Both the position numbers and the translations under genes were made by a program. Below are positions 11,684-54,686 of a stretch of DNA of 64,000 nt, in pieces (the first letter of the stretch is position 1; each line of letters begins with the position of its first letter). The notes beneath the pieces were generated by a model. That model was not told the origin of the DNA. It was given only the letters and a program-made list of their open reading frames with translations, and ran no database searches. The DNA is from an uncultured delta proteobacterium (GTDB taxonomy: Bacteria; Desulfobacterota; Binatia; UBA9968). The stretch lies in the NCBI GenBank assembly GCA_963804165.1, contig CAWDPO010000011.1:32001-96000 (forward strand), given 5' to 3'.

Positions 11684-12559
11684 TTAGCGACGTTTTATGT
11701 GACGGGTTTTCGGACCGGTGTATTTCCACAACAGATGGCGCGGTATCGGGCCTTTGTTGCGTTCGCCGGATTGGCTTTCTTCCCAGGCGTGGGCCAACAC
11801 CCCGACCGAGCGGGAAAGGACGAACAGGCCGCGGCAAAGCGGTGGCGGAAAGCCCAATTCCGCGAAAACGACACCAGTCGCGCCGTCGATGTTCATCGGA
11901 ATTTTTTTGCCCTTACGTTTCGCGAGCAGTGCCTCGATGCAACGGCCGATGGCGGCGAAGCGGCCGGAGACGTGGCCGGCAGCGGCGGCGGCATCGACGA
12001 GCTTTAATAATTTTGGCGCTCGGGGATCGACCGGATGAAAGCGGTGGCCGAAGCCGGGCACGTGACTGATGCGCTGCGCCGCTAAGGAATCCATTTCCGC
12101 CTCGACCGCTGCCTGGATCGCTTGCCCATTTTTTCCTTTGGTGCGCTTGGAATCGAGGCGGTTGGCAATGCGGTTGTAAAACACCACGCACTGCTCGCCT
12201 GCCCCGCCGTGGACGTCGCCCAGAACGTTGATCGCCGACGCCATGGCGTTGTTGATGCCGACGCCGCAGGTAATCGCCATGCGGGCTATCGCGATCGACG
12301 GCGCTTGAGGACCGTGGTCGACGGCCGCGACGAGAGCGGCTTCGAGAAGGTCTGCCTGACCGGAGCTCGGCAATTCGCCGCGAGTCAGCAACCAGACCAT
12401 TTCGGCGAAACCAACTTGCCCAATTAAATCCTCAATTGCGTAGCCGCGATAGCGGATCACGCCGGGGCGCATCTCGATGATCGAAGTGGACCACCACTGT
12501 TCAGGAGTTTTGGATACGCGGAGAGAATTTGGCTTCGGCTTCCGTAGTCTTTTATTCAT
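11684..12559 (-). CDS. Citryl-CoA lyase / citrate synthase-like protein
   Basis: DHGPQAPS, DVHGGAGE, PGFGHRFH, MNIDG. Confidence 0.88.
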   Translation of the reverse strand: MNKRLRKPKPNSLRVSKTPEQWWSTSIIEMRPGVIRYRGYAIEDLIGQVGFAEMVWLLTRGELPSSGQADLLEAALVAAVDHGPQAPSIAIARMAITCGVGINNAMASAINVLGDVHGGAGEQCVVFYNRIANRLDSKRTKGKNGQAIQAAVEAEMDSLAAQRISHVPGFGHRFHPVDPRAPKLLKLVDAAAAAGHVSGRFAAIGRCIEALLAKRKGKKIPMNIDGATGVVFAELGFPPPLCRGLFVLSRSVGVLAHAWEESQSGERNKGPIPRHLLWKYTGPKTRHIKRR

Positions 12560-13755
12560 ATGGCGTGCTGCTTTTTGAGTTCAGCAATAGCGGAGCTGTC
12601 GTAGCCGAGTTCTTCCAGGATCTTTTCCGTATCGGCGCCGAGCGCCGGCGGCGGAGTCGCAGGTTGAGGATCGCCACTCATCAAGCGGAATCCCGAACGA
12701 ACCAGCGATATCTCTCGCTCGACACTCGACGCGCTTGGGAATTTTTTAACCAGTTTGCGGCTGACGATTTGTGGGTGCTCTAGCACTTCCGGAATCGAGA
12801 GAACCTCACCGGCCGGTACGCCATGCTGATTCAATAGTGTGGACCAATCCTTGGCCGGCTTGGTTGCGAGGGCAACTTCCATCTCGGCCTTCAGTTCCTG
12901 GCGGAATTTTTTTCGGTCCTCGCGGTCAGCAAAACGCGGATCGGTGGCGAGCTCCTTTCGATCAATCAGGTGGCAAAGTTTTTCAAACTGCGCTTGCTGA
13001 TTGGCCGCGATATTGAGCAGGCCGTCGCCAGTCTTGAAAGTTCCCGAGGGACTCGCAGTCATGTTCTCATTGCCCAAAGGTTCCGGCCGCACGCCCGCGA
13101 TGAGCCAATTGGAAACCGCCCAACCCATTGTCACCAACGTTGATTCAAGCATGGATACGTCGATGAATTCGCCTTCGTTGCTGCGTTGTCGTCGAAATAG
13201 AGCTGCGGCGATGGCAAACGCTGCGGTGAGGCCGCCCATCGTGTCGGCGGCGGGAAACCCGACGCGGAGCGGCGCGGAATTTTTATCACCGGTTATGCTC
13301 ATCACGCCGGATAGACCCTGCACGATCTGGTCGTACGCCGGATTGTCTTTCAAGGGTCCACCTTGGCCGAAGCCAGAAATCGCGCAGTAGATTAGATCCG
13401 GTTTGGATTCTTTCAGCTGGTCATAACCGAGCCCCAGCCGCTCCATCACGCCCGGGCGAAAATTTTCCACGACAACGTCGGCGGTTTCGACCAGGCGCTG
13501 AAAAACTTCTTTGCCGCCGGGATTCTTGAGATTGATCGTCACCGATCTTTTGCCGGCATTCTGGGCTAGAAACGACGCACCCATCAGTTTCCGGTTCAGT
13601 TCGGCGTCGGCGCCCAGCTGGCGCGCGAGATCGCCGGTGCCGGGAACCTCAACCTTGATCACATCGGCGCCCAACTGGGCGAGTTGATAACAGCAGAAAG
13701 GTCCCGCCAACACGTTGGTGAGATCGAGCACGCGCACGCCTTCGAGCAGCTGCAT
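12556..13755 (-). CDS. CaiB/BaiF class III CoA-transferase
   Basis: LEGVRVLDLT, NAGKRS, ENFRPG, ISGFG, AYD. Confidence 0.93.
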   Translation of the reverse strand: MQLLEGVRVLDLTNVLAGPFCCYQLAQLGADVIKVEVPGTGDLARQLGADAELNRKLMGASFLAQNAGKRSVTINLKNPGGKEVFQRLVETADVVVENFRPGVMERLGLGYDQLKESKPDLIYCAISGFGQGGPLKDNPAYDQIVQGLSGVMSITGDKNSAPLRVGFPAADTMGGLTAAFAIAAALFRRQRSNEGEFIDVSMLESTLVTMGWAVSNWLIAGVRPEPLGNENMTASPSGTFKTGDGLLNIAANQQAQFEKLCHLIDRKELATDPRFADREDRKKFRQELKAEMEVALATKPAKDWSTLLNQHGVPAGEVLSIPEVLEHPQIVSRKLVKKFPSASSVEREISLVRSGFRLMSGDPQPATPPPALGADTEKILEELGYDSSAIAELKKQHAI

Positions 13756-15887: not shown

Positions 15888-17473
15888 TCCTAAACGCGAG
15901 CACATGGCGCTTTAAACTGCGCAGCATCCTTCTAGCGGTAAGTCTTGTTGTTCTTGTCCTGCCGCTCGGAGGCATCTATTTTTTGCGTATTTATGAAAAC
16001 GAGTTGGTGAAGCAGACCGAACTCGAGCTGATTTCTCAAGCAGCGCTGATAGCGGCCGTTTACAAGCGGGAAATCGATATTTTGACGGCCGACAAAAATC
16101 CGCAGAGGTATGGGATCAAGGTAGCCGCGCCGCCGGCCGTCGACGATTACTACAGTCCCATTCGTGCCGAACTCAAGCTCGGCGCTTCGGAGATCAAACC
16201 GCGCCCGCAAGAAGCGCAAAGAACCGATGTTCGCGCCGATCCCATCGCGCTGGAATCGGGAAGCCGGATGTCGTCATTGTTGCTCGACGCGCAGCGGACG
16301 ACGTTGTCGGGTGTAAGAATCCTCGACCATCAAGGCATTGTGGTCGGCGGCCGGGCAGACATCGGACAATCCTTCGTGCATCTTGAAGAGGTTCAGCGAG
16401 CAAGATCCGGACGATATACGAGCTCGATTCGCGAGAGAACGATTCATCGTCCGACGCGCGCGTTCGCGTCTATCAGCCGAGGCACGGGAATTCGGGTCTT
16501 TGTGGCTTTTCCGATCTTGGCCGATGATCGGCTGTTGGGAGTGGTTCTTTTGTCGCGCACGCCGCAAAGCATTTTGGAACATCTCTATAATCAGAAAGAG
16601 AAAGTATTCGTACTTGCGTCTATCGTTCTGGTTCTAGCCGTCGTTCTTGTCATATTCACTTCTTATACGGTTGCGCGCCCGCTGCATGCCTTGATGCAGC
16701 AAACGAAACAGTTTGTTAAGGGGGAAAAGGAGTCGATCGAGCCACTAAAGGCGCCGGTTACGGAAGAGGTGGCTTTGCTGTCGGAGAGCTTTACGGAAAT
16801 GGCGCGCAGCTTGCAGTCCCGCGCGGAATATATTCGTAACTTCGCCGCGCAGGTGTCGCACGAGTTCAAGACGCCGCTAACGGGTATCAGAGGCGCCGTC
16901 GAATTGTTGCAGGAGCACCAGAACGACATGTCTCTCGAGCAGCGTACTCGCTTCCTGCGTAACGTTGCGCAAGACACGGACCGGCTACAACGGTTAACTG
17001 ATCGCTTGCTCGAAATGGCGCGAGCGGACGTCATCGAGCCTACGAGCGAAACGACGGAGCTTACCCCGGTCCTCCGCAATTTCGGCGAACGGTACAAGGA
17101 TCAGAACGTAACAATTTCATTCGCCGGTGCGGATCAAGCCAGGGCGGCGATCGCTCCGGAGATTTTCGAAACCGTGTTTACCAATCTACTGGATAATAGT
17201 CGGCAGAACGGAGCTACTCGAGTGGATATCGACTTGAGTCGAGACAACGGCTGCGTTCACCTCATCGTTGCCGACAACGGCACAGGGATCTCTCCGGCCA
17301 ACGCTGAGCACATATTCGACTCGTTTTTCACAACTCGCAGAAATGAGGGGGGCACCGGGCTGGGCCTGGGAATTGTCCGATCGTTACTCAAAGCTTACGA
17401 TGGCGCAATTTCGCTGGAGCCGAGCGCGAAAGGCGCGATCTTTCGCGTGATCGTTCCCGAAGCCGGCAGTTGA
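15878..17473 (+). CDS. Sensor histidine kinase (CreC-like)
   Basis: Two TM segments, HAMP, SHEFKTPL, NLLDN, DNGTG, GTGLGL. Confidence 0.92.
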   Translation: MPLILNASTWRFKLRSILLAVSLVVLVLPLGGIYFLRIYENELVKQTELELISQAALIAAVYKREIDILTADKNPQRYGIKVAAPPAVDDYYSPIRAELKLGASEIKPRPQEAQRTDVRADPIALESGSRMSSLLLDAQRTTLSGVRILDHQGIVVGGRADIGQSFVHLEEVQRARSGRYTSSIRERTIHRPTRAFASISRGTGIRVFVAFPILADDRLLGVVLLSRTPQSILEHLYNQKEKVFVLASIVLVLAVVLVIFTSYTVARPLHALMQQTKQFVKGEKESIEPLKAPVTEEVALLSESFTEMARSLQSRAEYIRNFAAQVSHEFKTPLTGIRGAVELLQEHQNDMSLEQRTRFLRNVAQDTDRLQRLTDRLLEMARADVIEPTSETTELTPVLRNFGERYKDQNVTISFAGADQARAAIAPEIFETVFTNLLDNSRQNGATRVDIDLSRDNGCVHLIVADNGTGISPANAEHIFDSFFTTRRNEGGTGLGLGIVRSLLKAYDGAISLEPSAKGAIFRVIVPEAGS

Positions 17474-19116
17474 CGTCGTTCCACTAGCGAGTGCGCAAAA
17501 TCGCCCACAGTGATTTTTTGCCCTGTCTGGGTAGCAACCTCTTTCATCTGAATGAAGACTCGCCGGAGCAGCCCTGAGTTGAAGTGGTTGTTTTCAACCT
17601 GCCCAATTTTGGTCCAGGCGTTCAAGGATCCTGTCAACTGAAGTTGACGTAACAGTTCAAAGCCGATGCTGGTTCGCGGATCGGACCGCGACCGGTCCAT
17701 CAGCTCTTCGAGCGATGCGTCGCCGGTGATCGGCAGGCCTTTGAGAAAGTTTATGATTCTCGTTGTGACGAACAGAGTGTAGATGTCATCGCGCGTAAAT
17801 TGATCCGTTTCGATCGCCAGCGCGGTCAGGCGGGCTTTGACGTAATCTTTTTCAGTCAGCTCTAACCCGCGCGCAATCGGCGCGTTCGGTGTTTGATAGA
17901 ACGGCGAGGCGCCGAGAAGCACCGGAAGACGCGCGTTGAAAGCGAGCGTCTGAATCATACTGTCCAAACTTTCGTTGGTTAAGCCGAGGATCTGATACGA
18001 AACGATTTTGAAACCGAGTTGGTGGGCTTTGTTCACGACTCTCACGTAAGCCTCGAGCGTGTGCGGCCGCTTCGTGGTTTCGCGCACGGTTTTGTCGGAC
18101 GACACCAAAGCGAGATTCAAATGAGAGAAACCCGCTTGGTGCATCAGCTCAAGCAACTCGTCGTCGAGACTTAAATAGCTGATGCCGTTCATGGCGACGT
18201 ATTCTAACTCGCGATTAGGAAAGCGGGCGATCAGCCGGCGGCAGATTTCTTTGAAAGTCTGTTTGTAATAAGTAAGGTTATCGTCTTCGAAGTCGATCAC
18301 GCGATAGCCTTGCTGATAACGCAGCTCGATTTCTTGCAGAACATTCTCCAGCGAGCGCCGCCGGTAACTCGTGCCAAAGGTCGTGTGCACCGAGCAAAAG
18401 GAACATTTATGGGGGCAACTGCGCGAGGTGATCATGAATGTCATGGCTTTGCCGGCGAGCGTGTAGTTCATTGGACAAAAATCGCTCAGATCGGGGATCG
18501 GCAAGTCGTCGATCGGAAAGTTGTCGTGAAGAGGGTTGAGGACGAATGCGCCGTCGCGCTTGTAGGCGAGATTGGGAATCGCTTCGACGGATGTCTGATT
18601 GTCGATGGCGCGCAGGAATTCAACGAACGGCTTTTCGCCTTCGCCGCGAATGACGTAATCGACATTGGCGGAAGCCAGCAAGGACTCCGGCACGGCGGAT
18701 GCGTGAGATCCGCCGATGACGACGGTGGCGTTAGTGCGCTTCTTCACGCGCGCTGCGACTTCGAGCGCTTCGCGATAATACGGCGTGAAAAGCGACGAGA
18801 TGCCGACGACATCGGGAGCGAGCTCAACGATTTCGTTTTCGATTGCGTCAAACGATTCACCGAAGTGATAGTATCGGTGAAAGGTCGAGAACGGCGATTT
18901 ATCGGCGACCTTATAGTAGTCGACCAAGTAGCCAAGCTCTTTTGGAATCGGCACGGTCCTTCGACCGCAGCCGCCGTGATAGTCTTTGATAATAACTTCA
19001 ATACTGGGCAGATGTTTTTTTACCGCCGCTTTGAGATATGCGAGCCCGATCGGCTGCAGGCGCACATCGGTGTCGTAAAAATCTTGAACCGGCGGTTGGA
19101 CGAGCAACACTTTCAA
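17395..19116 (-). CDS. B12-binding domain radical SAM protein
   Basis: VLLVQPP..QPIGLAYL, GGSHAS, GEGE, CPHKCSFC, FEDDN; start set at TTG 19116 because the ORF-track start abuts the divergent gene. Confidence 0.88.
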   Translation of the reverse strand: MKVLLVQPPVQDFYDTDVRLQPIGLAYLKAAVKKHLPSIEVIIKDYHGGCGRRTVPIPKELGYLVDYYKVADKSPFSTFHRYYHFGESFDAIENEIVELAPDVVGISSLFTPYYREALEVAARVKKRTNATVVIGGSHASAVPESLLASANVDYVIRGEGEKPFVEFLRAIDNQTSVEAIPNLAYKRDGAFVLNPLHDNFPIDDLPIPDLSDFCPMNYTLAGKAMTFMITSRSCPHKCSFCSVHTTFGTSYRRRSLENVLQEIELRYQQGYRVIDFEDDNLTYYKQTFKEICRRLIARFPNRELEYVAMNGISYLSLDDELLELMHQAGFSHLNLALVSSDKTVRETTKRPHTLEAYVRVVNKAHQLGFKIVSYQILGLTNESLDSMIQTLAFNARLPVLLGASPFYQTPNAPIARGLELTEKDYVKARLTALAIETDQFTRDDIYTLFVTTRIINFLKGLPITGDASLEELMDRSRSDPRTSIGFELLRQLQLTGSLNAWTKIGQVENNHFNSGLLRRVFIQMKEVATQTGQKITVGDFAHSLVERRQLPASGTITRKIAPFALGSSEIAPS

Positions 19117-19240
19117 ATTCGAAAGAGATTTGTGACTCGAAAAAGGATCGCTCGCCGCACTTTGCAGAAAACTTGTAACCCGATTTTCCGGAGAGTATAG
19201 TCCCGAACAGTTTTCGATTGAGTTCTTTGCAGTAGACATC

Positions 19241-20527
19241 GTGGAACTAGAGCTTTTCGATTTTCACATCGACGCGATTCAGTGGGGAGATCGAACCTCG
19301 CTTGCGGGAGGGCAACTTAGTGTCAGCCTTGCCGAGATTCAAGAGCAGATCAAGGACTTGACCAGAAATATAAAATTGACCGCTGAACTCGCCCGTCCCG
19401 GCGAATCCAAGAGAATCGTGCATGTCCTCGACACCCTGATCCCGATCAGGAAAGTTCATGACGACCTTTGCACGTTTCCCGGTATCGATGTGCCGGCGCG
19501 GCTCGTGGGAACGGGACAGACTCAGCGGCTGCGCAACGTGCTGGTTACCATCGCGGGAAGTTTTCCCCATCCGGAGGCGATGACTCCGATCGAGAAACCC
19601 CGTGAAGGTATAATCGACATGACAGGCGTCGGGGCGCGTTACTCGCATGGATCGGATTATTTTCATTTGGTTCTAACTCTCGACGGTGAACCAGCGCTTT
19701 CAAACATAGCATTTGACCAGGCGCTAAGGAACATTGGAGTGCGCATCGCCCGTTATCTTGCCGGAGCCGAAAAAAGTGGCGCGGCGCCGGAGCGAAAAAA
19801 AGTTCACCTTGCTCAAGTTCAGAAGAAGCTCCCGAAGATTGTTCTTATATACCAGGTTCAGAGCCAGATTCCTCTGGTTAGGACTTTTTACTACGGCGAA
19901 GAAATCTCGAAAACCCTTCCTTCATTCGTTCATCCGAATGAGTTCATCGATGGAGCGGTGGTGAGCGGCACCTATAAAAGCGAGCGAAAAATTCCCACTT
20001 CGCTGCATTGTGCGAACCCTTTTATCGAGGAGATGCTCAAGCGGCACGGCGGCGAGTTGGAGTTCCTCGGTGTGATTCTCTCGCGCGGATATAACGACAG
20101 CTTTGAGCAGAAAAAGAAAATGGGGCTGTGGAGCGCTCGCTTGGCCAGATGTTTGGGCGCTGACGGCGCCGTGGCGATGATGGAGGGAACCGGCAATACG
20201 ACCGTCGATTTTATGCAAACCGTCAAAGCTTGCGAAGCGGAAGGGATTAAGACCGTAGCGGTTCTGCACGAGGATAACGGCGCCAAAGGCTATGAAAGGC
20301 CGCTGGTCGATCATCCGCGCGAAGCCGACGCGATGATCAGCCGTGGCAACCGCTCCGAGAAATTGGTTCTTGCCCCACTCGACCAGGTCATCGGAGGAAA
20401 GGAGATCGACCTCCATCTTAAACTCAAACACGATCCGCATAAGCCACTGTTTTTCGACCCGACGATCTTTTTCGGTGCGCATTGTCAGATGGGAGCCAGC
20501 GGCTTTCGTGCTGCCTTTGAAAGCTGA
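19241..20527 (+). CDS. Glycine/sarcosine/betaine reductase component B alpha/beta-like subunit (GrdE/GrdI-like)
   Basis: ELARPGESKRI, GIIDMTG, HPNEFIDGAVVSG, LGADGA, EADAMIS; 428 aa. Confidence 0.85.
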   Translation: MELELFDFHIDAIQWGDRTSLAGGQLSVSLAEIQEQIKDLTRNIKLTAELARPGESKRIVHVLDTLIPIRKVHDDLCTFPGIDVPARLVGTGQTQRLRNVLVTIAGSFPHPEAMTPIEKPREGIIDMTGVGARYSHGSDYFHLVLTLDGEPALSNIAFDQALRNIGVRIARYLAGAEKSGAAPERKKVHLAQVQKKLPKIVLIYQVQSQIPLVRTFYYGEEISKTLPSFVHPNEFIDGAVVSGTYKSERKIPTSLHCANPFIEEMLKRHGGELEFLGVILSRGYNDSFEQKKKMGLWSARLARCLGADGAVAMMEGTGNTTVDFMQTVKACEAEGIKTVAVLHEDNGAKGYERPLVDHPREADAMISRGNRSEKLVLAPLDQVIGGKEIDLHLKLKHDPHKPLFFDPTIFFGAHCQMGASGFRAAFES

Positions 20528-20539
20528 GATGAAACCAAA

Positions 20540-21844
20540 ATGATCAAAGTTTTACACTATCTCAATCAATTTTTTGCCGGCATCGGCGGTGAGGAGAAAG
20601 CCGGACAGGAATTTTTCTTTCTGCCGAAGCCCGCCGGACCCGGTGTCCTGCTCCGCGACCTACTGAAGAACCAGGACATTGAGTATGCAACGGTGGTCTG
20701 CGGCGACAACTATTTTCATGAACATGAAGAAGCTGTTCTCGCTTCTTTGACGGAAGTGATGGCGCAGTTTGCGCCGGACCTGTTTGTCGCCGGTCCGGCT
20801 TTTCATGCGGGGAGATACGGGCTTGCCTGCGCCAAAACCGCCAGCTTCGTGCGCGAGCGTTGGGGCGTGCCGGCGCTGACAGGGCTCTATGAAGAAAATC
20901 CGGGAACGAAGGAAGTCGGCCGGCATGTCTTGGTGATCCAGACGGGTTCGTCGGCTGCTTCGATGCAAACCGCCATTAAGCGGTTCGCCGATCTGGCGGT
21001 GCTTTTGCTCCACAAGAACGTTGAAAACCTCGAGGCCTTCAAAGAGGAATTTTGTCTAAAGATCCCGCGGCGATTTACCGTTCAAGCCGCTGCTCCCGAC
21101 AGCGTACGAGCAGTGGAGATGCTGCTAGCTAAGCTGGGTGGCGCGGCTTTCGAGAGCGAGATCCCGCGAATCGAGGTGGCGCCCCATCCGGTTCCCGCCG
21201 CGATTCAAGATCTCTCTCAGGCAACTCTCGCCATGGTGACGGAAGGCGGTTTGGTGCCATTAGGCAATCCCGACCGGCTGGAAAGCTCGCGCGGAACGAA
21301 GTACTTCAAGTACTCGATCAAAGAACGCGACGACTTGAAACCGGGCGAGTTCGAAGCCATGCATACCGGTTACGACACCTCCACGGTCAACGCTGATCCC
21401 GACCGGCTTATTCCCGTAGACGCCATGCGGACATTGGAACGCGCCGGGAATTTCGGCAGACTTCACGATTACTATTATGTCACGACCGGAACCGGCGCCA
21501 TGCCTGCCAAGATGCAGGAGCTCGGCGCAGGGATCGCCCAGGAGCTTTCGGCCTCGGGTGTAAACGGAGTCGTTCTCACTGCGACGTGAGGGACCGGCAC
21601 GCGTAGCGGCGCTACGATCGCAAAAGAAATTGAGCGGAGAGGAATTCCGGTGGTGCTCATCACCTGTCTCGCCAATGTGGCAACGCAAGTCGGGGCATAC
21701 CGGATCATGAGCGGAAATAAATTTCACTACCCGGTGGGCAACCCGGATCTTCCGGCCGCCGAAGAAGCGAAGTGGCGCGCTGAGTTGCTGAGCGCGGCGC
21801 TGAAAATTTTACAAACCACAGTCGATGCCCCGACTGTCTTCTAA
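20540..21844 (+). CDS. GrdB/GrdH-like selenoprotein B with Sec at TGA 21587-21589
   Basis: HYLNQFFAGIGGEE, AGPAF..GRYG, EENP; in-frame TGA then GTGTRSGATIAKEIERRGIPVV...PVGNP to TAA 21844; SECIS-like hairpin. Confidence 0.88.
21590..21616 (+). promoter_or_regulatory. Putative bacterial SECIS element
   Basis: 12 nt after UGA: stem CGTAGC / loop GGC / GCTACG. Confidence 0.75.
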
Positions 21845-21996: not shown

Positions 21997-23131
21997 CTAT
22001 ATAGCCGGCATCGCACTGGCCACGCCACGTTTTCGCATCTCGTCTTCGTAGTGTTTGCGAATGTACGGGTCTTCATCGGCGTATTCGATCAAGGTGCCGC
22101 CTTCTTTCACGTCTATATAAACGCCGTCCTCACTCCGCTTGTCGGCAATCTTAAAGCCGATGGGGTGAATCCGGCTGCCATAGCGAAGCGCGAGATGTCG
22201 CGCCGGCTCGGGGCCGGTATTAAAATGTTGATGGAACCATCCCCCCGGCGGGCAATAGACACTGCCGGCTTTCCATTTCACCTCGACGATTTCGTCCCCG
22301 CGGCCCGCTTCATAGGGCCCGAGGACCGAGTTCCTTCGACCATAACAAAACATAACCCGACGACTGCAAGCCCAACAGAATCGCGCCGGAACCGTGATAG
22401 TGCGCCTTGTGGTACCGAGCCGCCGGCCACTGTGCTAGATGGCCGATCAAACTATTGCCGGATAGCTCGAACTGAGTAATCCGCACCCCCGCTCCCTTGA
22501 TCTCGCGTTGATCCAAATTCGCCGACTGAATGTCCATGATGAAATTGGTTTCCCAGATATGCTGCATTCCCGACTCGTAGCGCTTTTGTCCGACATGAAA
22601 AAAATCGTCTACCCCCGCGTAACGATCGGCAAAATTATAGGGGCAGTTAAAAATGAACTCCTCATTATGCACGATGTCCATCACCAGCGGGGCGTTAGTG
22701 ACCGCCAAAAATTTCACCGGCAGGCGCCCGCCGTTGATCAACCGATGCCAGGTGTTGAGCGGTGGCGCAAACAAGCTCCACGGCCCCCATTCGAACATCT
22801 GCTTGCGCCCACCCTCTTGCCATACTTCCGTGGCGCCTTGGCCGTCGAGTATGCAGATCACTTCTTCGTAAAAATGCTTCTCGGCTAGAAGCGCGCCGCC
22901 GGCGGGAATCTCGCCGACATACATTCCGGTAACGCCTTCCATGCCGTATAGATTAATGAACGTCGCCTTGCCGCCGGTGCGTGTCCAGGGCGCCATGGCG
23001 ACTTCCCGGACATCCTCGAGGCCGTAACCATCGATCACCGGAATCCCCTGGCAAGCCATCCACTTGAAGTAAGTGGTTTTGTGAAACGCCGCCATCAAAG
23101 CTTTGATTCGTTCGTCCTGCGACATAATCAT
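21997..23131 (-). CDS. Bicupin protein, frameshifted near 22325
   Basis: EKHFYEE..PLNTWH first cupin; KAHYH..PPGGWFHQHFN second cupin; RBS AGGAG. Confidence 0.8.
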
Positions 23132-23580
23132 CCGGCTCCTTCGCCGACGGAATTTTTTCTTAGTGAATGTTTCGATTGCAGATTGATTCGGCCATTGCAT
23201 CGAAACGGAACGAAAACCTACCACAGTTCGATGAGATCAGGAAGGTTTCCGATGCGCAACGAAAAAGAGCCGGATCTTAAGCGTCAACGGCGCAACAGGT
23301 GATTGATTGGGTGCTGAAAGCGAAGATGATCGGAAAGGAGTTCGAGGATCTGGCGCGGATGCGGGATGCGTTGACACGCGCCAAATCAGCTCTGGGCGGC
23401 GCTAGACGACACAGGGGGCGTTGGTTTCGACGTTCCGCTTTACATCGTGCATGCTCTCCGCTCTCTTAGCGAGATCAAAGCTATCAAGATGATGAGTGTC
23501 GGTGCACCCGAGGCGATGGCTGGTCGCTCAGGGCGAAATCATGATCGACATCGATCGCAATTTCGCTACCGCGCAGGCGG

Positions 23581-25728: not shown

Positions 25729-26796
25729 ATGCAGATCGCGAAAATCGATACCAGGTTGCTCGAAATGCCCTATAACAAGCCGTTGGTTACGGCAACGAAT
25801 AATTTCACCGTCGCGCGCGGATTGCTCGTGAAGGTCGCTACGGACGGTGGCATCGAAGGTTACGGCTATTCCGATCTCTTCCCGCGCACCGGCGAGACGC
25901 CCCAGACGGCGCAGCATGTCATCGAAACAGTTCTAAAAGGTAAGGTGGTCGGCAAGGAGATCGAGGATCTGCCGCGGATACGCGCCGACATCGATCATAC
26001 TTTGACCGGAAACCCGCGGGCCAAGGCGGCTTTGGAAACCGCGATGTACGACGCGCTGGCGCGGGGCTATCACATGCCGCTATCCGTCATGCTCGGCGGG
26101 AAATATCGAAGCGAGATTAGAGTCATCAAGATGGTGAGCGTCGGCGATCCCGATGCGATGGCCGAAGAAGCGAAACAGCTTGTGCGTAGCGGACTGGCGC
26201 TGAAGCTCAAAGTCGGCGGGAAGATTGAGCAGGATTTGCCCCGGGTTGCGGCCGTACGCAAGGCGGTCGGCGCCGACGTCTTCATCAAAGTCGACGCCAA
26301 TGAATCGTACGATGCAAAAACCGCCATTCGCTTGGCCAAAGGGCTGGCCGATCACGGGGTGGAAGTCTTCGAACAGCCGGTGCCGCGCGATCAACTCGAC
26401 GCCTTGTGGGAAGTGAAAAAGCATTCGCCGATCAAGATCGAAGCGGACCAGTCGGCACGATCCTTCGCCGACGTACAGATGATGATTAAAAATCGCATGG
26501 TCGATTCGATCAACACGGGTATCGCTAAAGTCGGTAGCATTGGAGAGGTGCGCAAAATCGCTGATCTTTGTGAGCTGAACGGTATCCGCTGCGCCCTCTC
26601 GAACACGGCGGGCAGTATGGTTGGCGACGCTGCCGCGGTGCATCTCGCGGCGAGCACGCCCGGTATCTCACCGTTGTGCGAGCTGGGCGAGTTTGAAGTG
26701 ATCACCGGCGATCCATTTTTCGGCCTGACGGTCGAGAAGGGCATGATCAGCGTGCCGGAGGGCGAGGGATTGGGGGTGAGTCTCAGGGGATTCTAG
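25729..26796 (+). CDS. Mandelate racemase/muconate lactonizing enzyme (enolase superfamily)
   Basis: KLKVG, VDAN, FEQP, ADQS. Confidence 0.88.
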   Translation: MQIAKIDTRLLEMPYNKPLVTATNNFTVARGLLVKVATDGGIEGYGYSDLFPRTGETPQTAQHVIETVLKGKVVGKEIEDLPRIRADIDHTLTGNPRAKAALETAMYDALARGYHMPLSVMLGGKYRSEIRVIKMVSVGDPDAMAEEAKQLVRSGLALKLKVGGKIEQDLPRVAAVRKAVGADVFIKVDANESYDAKTAIRLAKGLADHGVEVFEQPVPRDQLDALWEVKKHSPIKIEADQSARSFADVQMMIKNRMVDSINTGIAKVGSIGEVRKIADLCELNGIRCALSNTAGSMVGDAAAVHLAASTPGISPLCELGEFEVITGDPFFGLTVEKGMISVPEGEGLGVSLRGF

Positions 26797-26813
26797 GAAG
26801 AGTGGAAGCAATC

Positions 26814-26924
26814 GTTGCAGACGTTCCAATCGTTCAAGTCGTTTCGAACGGACTCCGGACTCGATCCCGGCGATTGAACGTTTTGAACGGAGCGTAGCGG
26901 TTGAACGGTTTGAACCATTTGAAC
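26814..26924. repeat. Inverted 9-bp array pair (GTTCAAnnC ... GnnTTGAAC)
   Basis: GTTGCAGAC GTTCCAATC GTTCAAGTC, then TTGAAC units with a GGAGCGTAGC insert. Confidence 0.75.
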
Positions 26925-26948
26925 TCTTAATCTTGAGGAAAGATACCT

Positions 26949-28382
26949 ATGCCGGATTTACGCACATGGCTTAACGATGTCGACAAGCTCGGTCAGCTGA
27001 TGACCGTGGAAAACGTTCACTGGGATCTCGAGCTTTCGACCTTGACGGAAATTATCAACGAGCGCTCGAAGACGCGACCGGCGATCATTTTCGATCGCAT
27101 CAAAGACTACCCGCAAGGTTATCGCGTTGCCGCCAATCTGGTGTCATCTGTCGGTCGCTTGGCTCTCACGCTCGGCATGAAGGCCGACATGAGCGATATG
27201 GATTTCGTCCAAGCTTGGCGCCAGCAGGTTAAGAAGATCACACCGCTGCCGACAGAGACAGTTGCGACGGGACGGCTGTTTGAAAACGTCAAGAAAGGTA
27301 AAGACATTAACGTACTGCAATTTCCCGTGCCACGCTGGCACGAGCTGGATGGCGGGCGCTACATCGGCACCGACGATCTCGTGATCACGCGCGATCCGGA
27401 GGAGGACTGGGTCAACGTCGGCACCTACCGAGTCATGGTTCACGGCCCCGATCGCCTGGGGTTACACATGTCGCCCGGTAAACATGGCCGCGTGCACAGG
27501 GACAAATATCACGCGTGGGGAAAACCGTTGCCGATCGCGGTTTCTTTCGGTCATCATCCGATCAACTTCGTCGTGGCGTCCACCGACGTACCGAATCGCG
27601 TCAACGAGTACGAGTACACCGGCGGCATTCTCGGCAAACCGCTGCAGGTCGTTAAAGGACCGCTGACGGGTTTGCCGATCCCCGCCGACGCGGAGATCGC
27701 CATCGAAGGCGAAGTGGCGGTTGACGATGTCATGCCCGAAGGTCCGTTCGGAGAATGGACCGGCTACTACGCAAGCAATCAGCCGGCGGTACCCGTGATT
27801 CAAATCAAAGCGCTCTACTTCCGCAACGATCCGATCCTCTGCGGCTTTCCACTGCTCAAACCCTCCGCAGGCGACAATATTCATTTCTCGCTGATGCGCT
27901 CGTCCTTGGTCTGGAACGCCCTGGATGAAGCCGGCGTGCCCGATGTCAGAGGCGTGTGGTGTCATCCCTCGGCGGGCCGCTTCCTTACCGTGGTTTCGAT
28001 CAAGCAGCGCTACCCCGGTCATGCGCGCCAAGCCGGCATGATCGCTAGCCAATGCCGATCCGGCGCTTATCTTGGCCGTTACGTCGTCGTGGTCGATGAC
28101 GACGTCGACATAACCGATTCCGAAGAATTTCTCTGGGTGCTGAGCAGCCGTTCTGATCCGGCTGAGTCGATCGAGATTCTCCGGCGCGCCTGGAGCGGCC
28201 CGCTCGATCCGCGCATCGCGCGCGACCAGGTGGGTCACAGCTCGCGCGCGGTGATCGATGCGACGCGGCCGTACGAATGGCGCGAGAAGTTTCCCAAAGT
28301 CAGCGGCGCGAGCCGAGAATTAAAAGACAAAGTCGCGGGCGATTGGCGTGAGTTTCTCGATCAGAAGGTCGCCGGAAAATAG
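26949..28382 (+). CDS. UbiD-family (prFMN-dependent) decarboxylase
   Basis: DGGRY, NVGTYR, EGPFGEWTGYY, VVDDDVD, IDATRP. Confidence 0.92.
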   Translation: MPDLRTWLNDVDKLGQLMTVENVHWDLELSTLTEIINERSKTRPAIIFDRIKDYPQGYRVAANLVSSVGRLALTLGMKADMSDMDFVQAWRQQVKKITPLPTETVATGRLFENVKKGKDINVLQFPVPRWHELDGGRYIGTDDLVITRDPEEDWVNVGTYRVMVHGPDRLGLHMSPGKHGRVHRDKYHAWGKPLPIAVSFGHHPINFVVASTDVPNRVNEYEYTGGILGKPLQVVKGPLTGLPIPADAEIAIEGEVAVDDVMPEGPFGEWTGYYASNQPAVPVIQIKALYFRNDPILCGFPLLKPSAGDNIHFSLMRSSLVWNALDEAGVPDVRGVWCHPSAGRFLTVVSIKQRYPGHARQAGMIASQCRSGAYLGRYVVVVDDDVDITDSEEFLWVLSSRSDPAESIEILRRAWSGPLDPRIARDQVGHSSRAVIDATRPYEWREKFPKVSGASRELKDKVAGDWREFLDQKVAGK

Positions 28383-51932: not shown

Positions 51933-53240
51933 ATGAAACTCGAATTAGCTGAATTTCCGGTAAGCAAAATTCGTCTGGGGCATCGTTTCCGCTACGACAA
52001 CGAAATCCTCGATGTCGACGAGGACGGGTTGATCGCCCTGGTGCTCGAGGATTCGCGAATCACGAATGCGACGCTCGCCGTGGCGGCGCCGGGTGAAAAG
52101 ACGCGCATCACCGGGATACGAGATATCGTCGAGCCGAGATGCAAAGTATCGGGCAGCGGGCAGGTTTTCCCCGGCATATTGGGTCCCGTCGAGAATGTCG
52201 GCGATGGACGAACCCATCGTCTTTCGGGCATGACCGTCATTGCCGCTGCGGAGTACGAAGGCACGATCCGGGCGGGAACGACAGTACAGCGAAGCGCGAT
52301 CCTCGACATGTCGGGGCCCGGCGCGGAAGTTTCCCGGTTCAGCTCGTACTTGCATTTGGTGTTGAGCTTTAAAATCGCTCCGGGCCTCGGTGAACTGGAC
52401 GCCCACAGCGCGATTCAATTAGCTGAGTATAAAGTCGCCCAGCGGCTGGCCCAGGGCACCGAAGGATTGTCGCCGGGAAGGATTGTCGTCTACGATCTCA
52501 GCGGGAAAGATCCGCAGCTCCCCAATGTGATGCTGATACAAGGGTGCATCACCGATCCGCAGCATGTTCATTCGGGCATCGGTTACTATGGGCTCTCGCT
52601 GCGCAATTCCATGGCCACGTTTGTCCATCCCAACGAGCTTTTTGACGGCGCGGTAACGGTGGATACGACGCGCTCGGGACGCGGCTACTATCCGACGACT
52701 TGGGACTGGCAGAACCATCCGTTGATTCTGGAGTTGTATGCGGCGCATGGCAAAAGCTTGAACTTCGGCGGGGTCATCATGCAGCGCATTCGCTTCGAGA
52801 CCCATCACGGCAAAGAAGTCGGCGCGCAGAACGCGGCGCGCTTGGCCAAAGCCATGGGCGCTGACGGCGCGCTGGTGACCTGGATCGGCGGCGGCAATGC
52901 ATTTGTCGACGTGATGCTGACCGTGCGCGCCTGCGAGCGCAACGGCATCAAAACGACGCTGGTGACCTATGAAAACGGCGGCAAGGAAGGCAAAGATAGC
53001 CCGGTGCTGTTCTATCTTCCCCAGGCCGACGCGGTGGTGAGCACGGGCAGTCTCGATAAAACGTTGGAATTACCGGCGATGGACCGAGTGGTCGGTCCCT
53101 ATGAACGGATCAAAATTTTTCCTTATCCCGGCGCCGCGACAGTGCCCGCAAGTGATGCGTTGTCGCTGGAAGCGCGAGACGTCATGATGGGCGGCGCGGA
53201 TATCTGGGGACAAGGACAATTTAGATGCGCGGAGTACTAA
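51933..53240 (+). CDS. Glycine/sarcosine/betaine reductase component B alpha/beta-like subunit (GrdE/GrdI-like)
   Basis: MKLEL, PGEKTRI..DIVEPR.K, G.GRTH.L, LDMSGPG, HPNELFDGA, QNHP, GADG, ADAVVSTG. Confidence 0.88.
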   Translation: MKLELAEFPVSKIRLGHRFRYDNEILDVDEDGLIALVLEDSRITNATLAVAAPGEKTRITGIRDIVEPRCKVSGSGQVFPGILGPVENVGDGRTHRLSGMTVIAAAEYEGTIRAGTTVQRSAILDMSGPGAEVSRFSSYLHLVLSFKIAPGLGELDAHSAIQLAEYKVAQRLAQGTEGLSPGRIVVYDLSGKDPQLPNVMLIQGCITDPQHVHSGIGYYGLSLRNSMATFVHPNELFDGAVTVDTTRSGRGYYPTTWDWQNHPLILELYAAHGKSLNFGGVIMQRIRFETHHGKEVGAQNAARLAKAMGADGALVTWIGGGNAFVDVMLTVRACERNGIKTTLVTYENGGKEGKDSPVLFYLPQADAVVSTGSLDKTLELPAMDRVVGPYERIKIFPYPGAATVPASDALSLEARDVMMGGADIWGQGQFRCAEY

Positions 53241-53345: not shown

Positions 53346-54686
53346 ATGATCAAGATCGCTCATGTCGTCAATCAATTTTTTGCCGGCCTCGGCGGTGAAG
53401 AAAAAGCCGATCTGCCCGTGGGCGTGCTCGAAGGCAGCGCCGGCGCCGCGCGGGCTTTGGAGTTGAAGCTCAACGGAGAAGCAGAGATCGCTTGCACGAT
53501 TTATGTCGGCGACAATTACTTCCATGAGCACAAGGACGAAGCGATTCCGGCGATATTGAATGCAGTGCGGGCAGCGGATCTGCAGATTGTTGTTGCTGGG
53601 CCGGCTTTCAATTCCGGGCGGTACGGTATGACTTGCGTCGAGGTCTGCAATGCGGTTGCCAACGAACTGGCAATTCCTTGCGTGACCGCCATGCACGAAG
53701 AGAATCCGGGCGTCGATGCGTATCGCGAGTTCAGCAATGCTCGGTTGTATTGCTTGCCGACGGCGGAGACGATAGCGGGAATGAATGATGCGCTGACGCG
53801 CTTGGCCGTGTTTGCGATTCGTCTCGCGTGCGCTGAGCAAATCGGTTCGGCAAGCAAGGAAGGCTACATTGGCCGCGGTATTCGACGCATCGAGAAAATC
53901 GATCAGCGTGGCGCGACACGCGCCCTCGACATGCTGCTCAAAAAACTAAAAGACCAGCCGTTTGAAAGCGAACTGCCGATGGAAGTTTGGGATGATGCCG
54001 TGGCTGCGGCGCCGCTGGCGCGGGTCAAGGACAGCAATATCGCCGTGGTGACAACGAGCGGCGTTGTCCCGTTCGGCAATCCGGATAAATTCAAGACCTA
54101 CCGCAATACCTACTGGCGCAAATACAATATCGCCGAGCTCAAAGAGCTCGAAGCGGGAAAATGGGAGGCGGTTCATGGCGGCTACAACGTCGCTTATATG
54201 AATCAGAACCCGCACTACGGCGTACCGCTCGACGCACTGCGCGCGCTGGAAGCGGAAGGAGCGATCGGCGCGGGTAAACTTTATCCCGCCTATTATGTCA
54301 TCCCGGGAAACCAGGGTTCGCCCACGGTCATGCGCCGCATGGGTCAAGAAATTGCCGCGGACTTGAAAAGAGACGGCGTCGAAGGAGTTCTTTTTGTCGC
54401 CACGTGAGGGACCTGCAGTCGCAGCGGCGCTGTGATGAGCAAGGAACTTGAGAGGGCGGGATTGCCGGTGGCGTTAATCAGCGCGATGTTTCCCGTGGCG
54501 CAGCAGGTGCGCGCCAACCGCATCATCAAAGGCGTCAGTATCCCACATCCATGCGGTGATCCGAATTTGTCCAAAGAGCTAGATGCGCGCCTGCGCAAAG
54601 AAATTATCCAAACCGCGCTTAAAGCTCTCGAATCAAAGGTTGAAGGGCCGACAGTGTTTTCTCCGCCAGTGGCTATAGGCGGGTAA
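53346..54686 (+). CDS. GrdB/GrdH-like selenoprotein B with Sec at TGA 54405-54407
   Basis: NQFFAGLGGEEKA, AGPAFNSGRYG, MHEENPG, HGGY; TGA then GTCSRSGAVMSKELERAGLPV..IPHPCGDP to TAA 54686. Confidence 0.9.
54408..54434 (+). promoter_or_regulatory. Putative bacterial SECIS element
   Basis: 12 nt after UGA: stem CGCAGC / loop GGC / GCTGTG (one G-U pair); same geometry as 21590-21616. Confidence 0.75.

Follow-up and report, generated by a model that had tools for sequence, protein, structure and literature searches.

The selenoprotein B components of glycine reductase (GrdB), sarcosine reductase (GrdF) and betaine reductase (GrdH) are stated to carry the motif UxxCxxC, in which U is selenocysteine (Sec) (PMC6778437). 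The canonical GrdE partner of GrdB contains the sequence SGN-C242-VSA-C246, and Cys242 of the C. difficile GrdE is the precursor of a pyruvoyl group, since the peptide formed by amino acids 242–266 bears the Cys-derived N-terminal pyruvoyl (PMC9908766). Departures from this scheme have been reported: FarB, of Cloacibacillus porcorum MFA1, is an already published GrdB-like selenoprotein without CxxC, and its partner FarE is described as having no processing cysteines and hence as not being a proprotein (PMC10838667). In the strain DCMF, a B component without UxxCxxC was termed "likely a pseudogene" (PMC6778437). Here we analyzed a gene pair located at positions 19241–21844 of a 64,000-nucleotide stretch of DNA (the window) from the genome of an uncultured delta proteobacterium belonging to the class Binatia (assembly GCA_963804165.1, contig CAWDPO010000011.1, positions 32,001 to 96,000). 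This pair codes for a GrdE-like protein and a GrdB-family selenoprotein which, judging from their sequences, belong to an uncharacterised variant of the known family, the hallmark cysteines being missing from both subunits. The pair and the elements required for its reading are as follows:

19241–20527, plus strand: GrdE-like partner subunit (428 amino acids, GTG start, TGA stop; PF09338)
20540–21844, plus strand: GrdB-family selenoprotein B gene (434 residues, Sec being residue 350, stop codon at 21842–21844; PF07355, TIGR01918)
21587–21589, plus strand: UGA selenocysteine codon (aligned with an in-frame TGA in the related loci; invariant in two bridging public contigs)
21590–21627, plus strand: selenocysteine insertion sequence (SECIS) element (stem 21602–21607 paired with 21611–21616, apical loop GGC at 21608–21610; RF01990)

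The open reading frame (ORF) 20540–21589 and the frame ending at 21844 form a single frame interrupted by TGA 21587–21589 alone, as had been proposed in a first-pass annotation made from the sequence without any database searches. Translating this TGA as Sec gives the context VVLTAT-U-GTGTRSGATIAKEIERRGIPVV, in agreement with that annotation, and the motif following the Sec reads U-G-T-G-T-R-S, so that the two cysteines are indeed replaced by Gly and Ser. The read-through protein matches the Pfam GRDB family (PF07355) with an E-value of 9.1e-115 (384.1 bits, cut-off 22) and TIGR01918 with 402.9 bits (cut-off 65.45), residues 3–434 being aligned with positions 1–430 of the 431 in the model. The scores obtained on the more specific models were all below their cut-offs: 376.1 bits on TIGR01917 (the GrdB equivalog, 602.2), 403 bits on NF040794 (the sarcosine reductase GrdF, 800), 389.2 bits on NF040795 (the betaine reductase GrdH, 775) and 88.4 bits on TIGR04483 (PrdB, 300). 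At the subfamily level, the 20540–21844 product belongs to the GrdB family, and it falls outside GrdB proper, GrdF, GrdH and PrdB as defined by these models. Close homologues from metagenome-assembled genomes of Binatia are labelled by NCBI [quoted passage not shown] and no match with an E-value of 0.01 or better was found when the PDB sequences were searched with the read-through protein.

When one genome per species was scanned, 80 related loci were obtained, 79 of which reach the Sec site (locus L062 ends before this site and was left out of the TGA count). At the aligned Sec site, an in-frame TGA was found in all 79 loci, and neither a sense codon nor any other stop occurs there, which places the UGA at the Sec position of the GrdB homologues. 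None of the homologues was found to terminate at this position, the frame being open and conserved in 79 of the 79 loci. In a codon comparison with 12 relatives of equal length, the 84 codons located 3' of the TGA showed 64–90% protein identity, the corresponding values for the upstream part being 60–85%, and many of the codon changes occurring past the TGA are synonymous (33 synonymous vs. 8 non-synonymous changes in L039, for example). These data argue that the frame past the TGA is open and subject to purifying selection.

The genome assembly (7.5 Mb, 46 contigs, 81% complete) was also found to carry the genes of the Sec machinery:

Contig C16, 139949–144339, minus strand: selA-selB-selD cluster (all three genes above the model cut-offs)

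In the profile search of the genome, selD, selA, and selB gave 384.7, 610.3, and 357.2 bits, respectively, each of these scores being above the cut-off, and a tRNA-Sec gene was located on contig C24 (76 bits; anticodon tca according to ARAGORN). The selD gene carries an in-frame TGA of its own, which suggests that SelD is also a selenoprotein. At the level of the DNA itself, two public contigs, one from a DNA run and the other from an RNA library, span the UGA with at least 31 letters on each side; positions 21587–21589 are invariant in both of them, and no sense codon was therefore seen at 21587. Record 5 of the set X1, which has just 16 nt upstream of the TGA, was excluded from these bridging contigs. 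Each of the public runs holding the gene contained at most 0.20 of the sampled words, and the coverage of the gene by the contigs is patchy. Genome-wide recoding of TGA (codes 4 or 25) was considered since the database protein P0049 has a W at the Sec site. It was rejected, as TGA terminates 667 of the 1578 open frames of at least 400 codons in the genome, as well as the upstream GrdE-like gene. Another database protein, P0066, has an R at the Sec site, and its sequence is cut at the end of a contig.

The 6-bp hairpin said in the first-pass annotation to start 12 nt after the UGA was found at 21602–21616 (CGTAGC-GGC-GCTACG). In a permissive search of 141 nt, it matched the Rfam model RF01990 (SECIS_4), the consensus of which is the canonical GrdB element, over its full length (positions 1–38 of 38) with 32.1 bits (gathering score 38, E-value 4.9e-6). 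No Rfam matches were obtained in the whole 64-kb window at the gathering thresholds. Since the single-sequence fold of 21581–21650 is indistinguishable from those of shuffled sequences (z −0.39), the support for the hairpin is comparative. In the 82 homologous sites compared (70 distinct sequences), 98.1% of the stem cells are paired and three of the six pairs show changes on both sides; the covariation score was reached by none of 500 shuffles, and it collapses in the slid controls. Of the 70 distinct sequences, 39 have U:A and 31 have A:U at pair 19–27, which is unpaired in none of them. This pair consists of the first base of the Cys/Ser codon (TGC/AGC) and the wobble base of the next Ala codon (GCA/GCT): since this pair stays paired, the Cys-to-Ser change from TGC to AGC appears to be compensated in the RNA stem by the change from GCA to GCT in the Ala codon. 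The presence of the TGA in all the loci, the conservation of the 3' codons, the pairing of the SECIS stem and the Sec machinery of the host all support the idea, put forward in the first-pass annotation, that the UGA is read through as Sec, and they argue that 20540–21844 is a genuine selenoprotein gene and that its TGA is neither a stop codon nor an error.

As stated in the literature (PMC6778437) and noted in the first-pass annotation, UxxCxxC is the usual form of the motif: the canonical UG[TS]CTRCG was found in 41 of the 79 loci, mainly in Bacillota and also in Syntrophorhabdus and others. Both cysteines are lost (UG[TS]GTRSG) in 36 loci, the record titles of which are Binatia, "delta proteobacterium," Dehalococcoidia, Rokubacteria, and Methylomirabilota, while the second Cys alone is retained in two (L067 and L107). 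Five relatives with UxxCxxC or UxxDxxC, including L067, scored 610–804 bits on TIGR01917, above the cut-off of 602.2, whereas three Cys-less relatives (L064, L065, and L082) scored 355–427 bits. The Ser located two residues before the Sec is replaced by Ala (TATU vs. TSTU) in the window gene and in all 36 UG[TS]GTRSG loci; a Cys-less paralogue present on contig C45 of the same genome retains this Ser. In the trees, a branch with an SH-aLRT support of 91 separates the UxxCxxC genes, among which are a true GrdH and one GrdF-like gene, and the Cys-less genes form several deep lineages. With PrdB as the root, the UxxCxxC clade is nested among the Cys-less lineages, but this root is unreliable (the end branch of PrdB amounts to 6.28). 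A paralogue from the strain DCMF, having UGTGTRSG and a "GNY" partner, falls inside the clade of the window gene (18 rows, SH-aLRT 94). Judging from this distribution, the loss of the cysteines characterises a large and deep set of lineages and is no peculiarity of the window gene.

The product of 19241–20527 matches PF09338 (the GrdE/G/I family) with an E-value of 1.3e-93. Its best NCBIfam match is GrdG (209.5 bits, cut-off 780), and on the FarE model (NF053623) it obtained 108.4 bits (cut-off 675), which is lower than its GrdG score. The gene ends 12 nt upstream of the start codon of the selenoprotein. A partner of this kind, located upstream on the same strand, was identified in 67 of the 79 loci, and the 12 loci having no such partner covering the site were not counted. 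When aligned with the canonical GrdE, the window partner shows a Tyr ("SGTY") in the column of Cys242 and no Cys in that of Cys246. The Cys242 column is occupied by Cys in 38 of the 38 partners of UxxCxxC genes, and by Tyr (22), Phe (6), or Asn (1) in the 29 partners of Cys-less genes, including the window pair. Because related sequences are not independent, this contrast should be taken as a pattern and not as a statistical test. The first-pass annotation proposed, from the replacement of the two cysteines, that the chemistry or the protection of Se differs from that of glycine reductase; the loss of the pyruvoyl-precursor Cys from the partner constitutes stronger evidence for a different chemistry than the loss of CxxC.

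In comparison with GrdB/GrdE (TIGR01917; Clostridium sticklandii and C. difficile), the window pair has the same fold family, length, and aligned Sec position, a SECIS_4-type element, and the same gene order (E then B), whereas the B protein has no UxxCxxC, shows TATU instead of TSTU and scores below the equivalog cut-off, the partner lacks both Cys242 and Cys246, and GrdD was not found in the lineage. GrdH/GrdI is represented here by the Paraclostridium locus L124, which scored 823.1 bits on the GrdH model NF040795 (cut-off 775). The window pair resembles it in that the GrdI partner has no Cys242 and carries an aromatic residue (Phe) in that column; GrdH/GrdI needs no Schiff base for its substrate and works with GrdA and GrdC, as the window pair probably would. 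It differs from GrdH, which keeps UGTCTRCG and is placed in the tree inside the UxxCxxC clade, away from the window gene. The similarities with FarB/FarE, as described in PMC10838667, include a Sec-containing GrdB-like protein without CxxC, a partner without processing cysteines, a radical SAM gene nearby, and a shared GrdA system, which FarB/FarE feeds and the window pair probably would as well. The window partner scores far below the cut-off of the FarE model, however, the comparison with FarB being based on the published description only. The far operon includes the antiporter gene farA and the radical SAM gene farC, whereas in the window there is no adjacent antiporter and the radical SAM gene is of another type, divergent, and poorly conserved; in addition, FarB/FarE belongs to Synergistota, and the present pairs to Binatia and others. 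The similarities with PrdB (TIGR04483; L126) consist of a homologous C-terminal half with the Sec at the same position, but PrdB has ~240 residues, the motif UGTCHRT (with the first Cys kept), and a PrdA partner, and makes no use of GrdA/GrdC. From these comparisons, the window pair would work most like FarB/FarE and GrdH/GrdI, although it appears to be a member of neither.

The components with which a protein B is expected to work were identified elsewhere in the genome:

Contig C24, 33480–35700, minus strand: grdC and grdA, with grdC directly upstream (grdA encodes a CFVU selenoprotein)

GrdA scored 182.8 bits and its gene contains a single TGA, which is located in the CFVU motif, while GrdC scored 451.5 bits (cut-off 450). 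Among the 26 genomes of the order, GrdB-family proteins and GrdA occur together in 18, GrdB-family proteins only in one, GrdA only in one, and neither of them in six. In three relatives, the genes form a row, grdC-grdA-grdE-like-grdB-like, with UGTSTRSG in the B protein and no Cys242 in the partner, and a fourth relative carries the same genes in a different order. At five Dehalococcoidia loci, grdC directly follows the Cys-less grdB-like gene (L075, the one of the five that was scored on the GrdC model, gave 655 bits). Full-length GrdB-family genes were detected in 8 of the 81 genomes of the class searched. Short ORFs of ~150–250 amino acids matching only positions ~200–345 of the GRDB profile are present in 34 of these 81 genomes (at C6:112670–113032 in the present one), and seem to constitute a small family resembling the C-terminal part of GrdB.

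We consider it likely that the window pair is the protein-B module of a Grd-type selenoenzyme which functions without a pyruvoyl group, by direct displacement, and hands its product over to GrdA/GrdC. The observations on which this proposal is based are the Sec coding, the family membership, the loss of three cysteines, the presence of GrdA and GrdC, the co-occurrence, and the operon linkage; from these we infer that the pyruvoyl cofactor is absent, that displacement is direct, and that the product is transferred to GrdA. According to this scheme, the UGA at 21587 is read as Sec by means of the SECIS_4-like hairpin and the selA, selB, selD, and tRNA-Sec of the host. Since the partner has no Cys242, it would not be cleaved and would carry no pyruvoyl group, so that the substrate would not be held as an imine (Schiff base). 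The Sec selenolate would attack the alpha-carbon of a compound X-CH2-COO- with a leaving group able to depart without being activated through an imine, the candidates being a halide (cf. fluoroacetate reductase) and a quaternary ammonium or sulfonium group (cf. betaine reductase). Selenoprotein A (GrdA) would then receive the carboxymethyl group, which would be converted via GrdC into an acetyl unit or acetyl phosphate. As there is no internal thiol near the Sec, its resolution or protection would have to come from outside, most simply from the Cys-x-x-Sec of GrdA. The pair probably reduces something other than glycine, which is an unlikely substrate, and the aromatic residue present at the former pyruvoyl site suggests, by analogy, an onium substrate.

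Several points weigh against this proposal. GrdH retains UxxCxxC even though its partner is devoid of Cys242, and the loss of CxxC therefore requires an explanation of its own and cannot simply be attributed to the absence of Schiff-base chemistry. In the window partner, Cys257 (SLHC), 12 residues further on than the former pyruvoyl site, is conserved in the clade of the window gene and could be another processing site; the equivalent of this residue is missing from the Dehalococcoidia partners. The grdC gene shows a frameshift near its 3' end, which may be real or due to an assembly error, the last part being in frame into grdA. The best score of GrdD (protein C alpha, NF040747) was 22.7 bits in this genome, as compared with a cut-off of 350, and none of the 26 genomes of the order, most of which have GrdC and GrdA, reached this cut-off (best score 28.8 bits). 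Since GrdD was not found in either search, the final steps may depart from the textbook pathway, and GrdC may be the only component of protein C in this lineage. The RNA-library contig covering the UGA may be derived from DNA, which such libraries can contain, and it is therefore no proof of transcription. Lastly, the neighbouring genes vary between loci and show weak, sub-threshold matches (PhnS-like, SsuA-like solute-binding, cupin, glyoxalase, and amidohydrolase).

The possibility that the TGA is simply a stop, giving a pseudogene or a truncated protein of 349 residues, corresponds to the annotation in most databases, where nearly all the close entries are 349-residue products ending at the UGA, and to the interpretation of the UxxCxxC-less B component of DCMF given in PMC6778437. 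This possibility is hardly credible in view of the open 3' frame under apparent purifying selection, the TGA shared by 79 of 79 loci, the compensatory changes in the SECIS stem, and the complete Sec machinery; moreover, the UGTGTRSG paralogue of DCMF groups with the window gene in a conserved clade. An ordinary glycine reductase, in which GrdE and GrdB proper would convert glycine into acetyl phosphate and ammonia, would account for the identical family and gene pairing, for the GrdA and GrdC found in the genome, and for the name "glycine reductase" given to close homologues in some sources. We nevertheless find it improbable, because the score on TIGR01917 (376.1 vs. 602.2) is far from those of the five UxxCxxC/UxxDxxC relatives, UxxCxxC is missing after the Sec, and without Cys242 the known site cannot give rise to the Schiff-base cofactor that a primary amine requires. 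Nor does the window protein match the motif AHGGxD..RV[IL]PxD..TxGNxTxV, which Nobu et al. are described as having used to filter GrdB homologues (PMC9751293), since the corresponding residues, aligned by eye, are MHTGYDT..RLIPVD..TTGTGA.

Two further explanations specify the leaving group. A betaine-type reductase cleaving a quaternary ammonium or sulfonium acetate, such as glycine betaine or dimethylsulfonioacetate, is a sub-case of the pyruvoyl-free scheme proposed above, in which the aromatic residue replacing Cys242 would help to hold the onium group by cation-pi interactions. An aromatic residue (Phe) does occupy this site in the GrdI partner of a genuine GrdH, Tyr or Phe occurs there in 28 of the 29 partners of the Cys-less clade, and the amine released could be used by the host, as Binatota have been described as methylotrophs using methylamines (PMC8262859). 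On the other hand, the score on NF040795 is only 389.2 bits vs. 775, the true GrdH keeps UxxCxxC, no OpuD/BCCT-type betaine transporter was observed next to the pair, and the cation-pi interaction with the aromatic residue is itself conjectural, so that we regard this sub-case as conceivable, though somewhat doubtful. That the pair might be an orthologue of FarB/FarE, acting as a haloacetate (fluoroacetate) reductase, is suggested by the same double loss in FarB (CxxC) and FarE (the processing cysteines) and by the radical SAM gene of the far operon (PMC10838667), since the window pair is preceded by a divergently oriented radical SAM gene. Such an orthology is very unlikely, however, as the partner scored 108.4 vs. 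675 on the FarE model, less than on that of GrdG, the radical SAM protein here is B12-binding and its gene is retained in just 3 of 35 loci, and no oxalate/formate-type antiporter is adjacent.

The other features of the window and the additional gene pairs of the genome can be listed as follows:

17395–19239, minus strand: B12-binding radical SAM gene (PF04055 and PF02310), divergent from the GrdE-like gene
22310–23224, minus strand: cupin-domain gene (weak Cupin_2 match), a recurrent neighbour in the clade
51933–53240, plus strand: second GrdE-like gene (237.2 bits on the GrdG model, cut-off 780; "VDTT," no Cys242 equivalent)
53346–54686, plus strand: second GrdB-family selenoprotein gene (TGA at 54405–54407; UGTCSRSG, only the first Cys kept)
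11684–13755, minus strand, and 25729–28382, plus strand: other window genes (citrate-synthase-like, family III CoA-transferase, CreD-like with a two-component system, enolase-superfamily, and UbiD-family decarboxylase)
Contig C45, 201640–204278: third intact pair (UGTSTRSG)
Contig C10, 43551–46093: fourth pair, broken by frameshifts and a TAA (pseudogene or assembly error)

A homologue of the radical SAM gene is present at the same position only in the three nearest of the 35 loci (WINA, L038, and L039), which makes it a possible accessory gene with a weak link to the pair. Its true start is probably located further in, since the longest ORF begins 1 nt from the start of the GrdE-like gene on the opposite strand. 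Cupin homologues (cluster 3) adjoin the pair in 7 of the 35 loci. In L051, L053, L057, and L058, which are loci from "uncultured delta proteobacterium" and its kin, the GrdE-like/GrdB-like pair comes after a cupin gene and an EutA-like gene having the same orientation; the EutA-like gene (326.7 bits, cut-off 598) resembles the reactivase of ethanolamine ammonia-lyase. As clues to the substrate, the neighbouring genes all gave matches below the family cut-offs, and no substrate can be named from them. The second GrdB-family gene of the window has a hairpin of its own (CGCAGC-GGC-GCTGTG), and genes for a glyoxalase, an SsuA-like binding protein, and a hydrolase are located 3' of this second pair. 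The window genes ranging from the citrate-synthase-like to the UbiD-family ones show no evident link with a reductase.

In our literature search, no paper combining the terms "selenocysteine" and "Binatia" was found, and the terms selen-, glycine, betaine, and sarcosine are absent from the main text of the Binatota genome paper. Databases truncate genes of this kind at the UGA, and at least one paper has dismissed a member of the family as a pseudogene because it lacked UxxCxxC. The Cys-less genes analyzed here are conserved, code for Sec, and are tied to GrdA/GrdC, and the hallmark cysteines have been lost jointly in both subunits. If the rooting of the tree with PrdB is correct, the UxxCxxC "hallmark" of the clostridial enzymes would be a later addition and not an ancestral feature. 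A broader idea, which we put forward tentatively, is that the pairs of Cys-less GrdB and Cys-less GrdE proteins might constitute a large and old group of selenium reductases which needs no pyruvoyl group and has gone unrecognised, in lineages from soil and the subsurface for which Stickland chemistry is not known (Binatia, Dehalococcoidia, Rokubacteria, and Methylomirabilota). Using GrdA and a GrdD-less GrdC, these enzymes might split acetates bearing an onium group or some other alpha-substituent (betaine-like osmolytes, sulfonium acetates, and possibly sulfo- or haloacetates) to give an acetyl unit and a methylated amine or sulfide, which methylotrophs such as Binatia could oxidise. The present findings place a selenium-dependent and supposedly strictly anaerobic energy metabolism in a phylum whose genome analysis omits it from the main text, and they make it possible to test the role of CxxC, the ability of Sec to displace a leaving group when no imine activates it, and the identity of the environmental compounds that these soil bacteria reduce.

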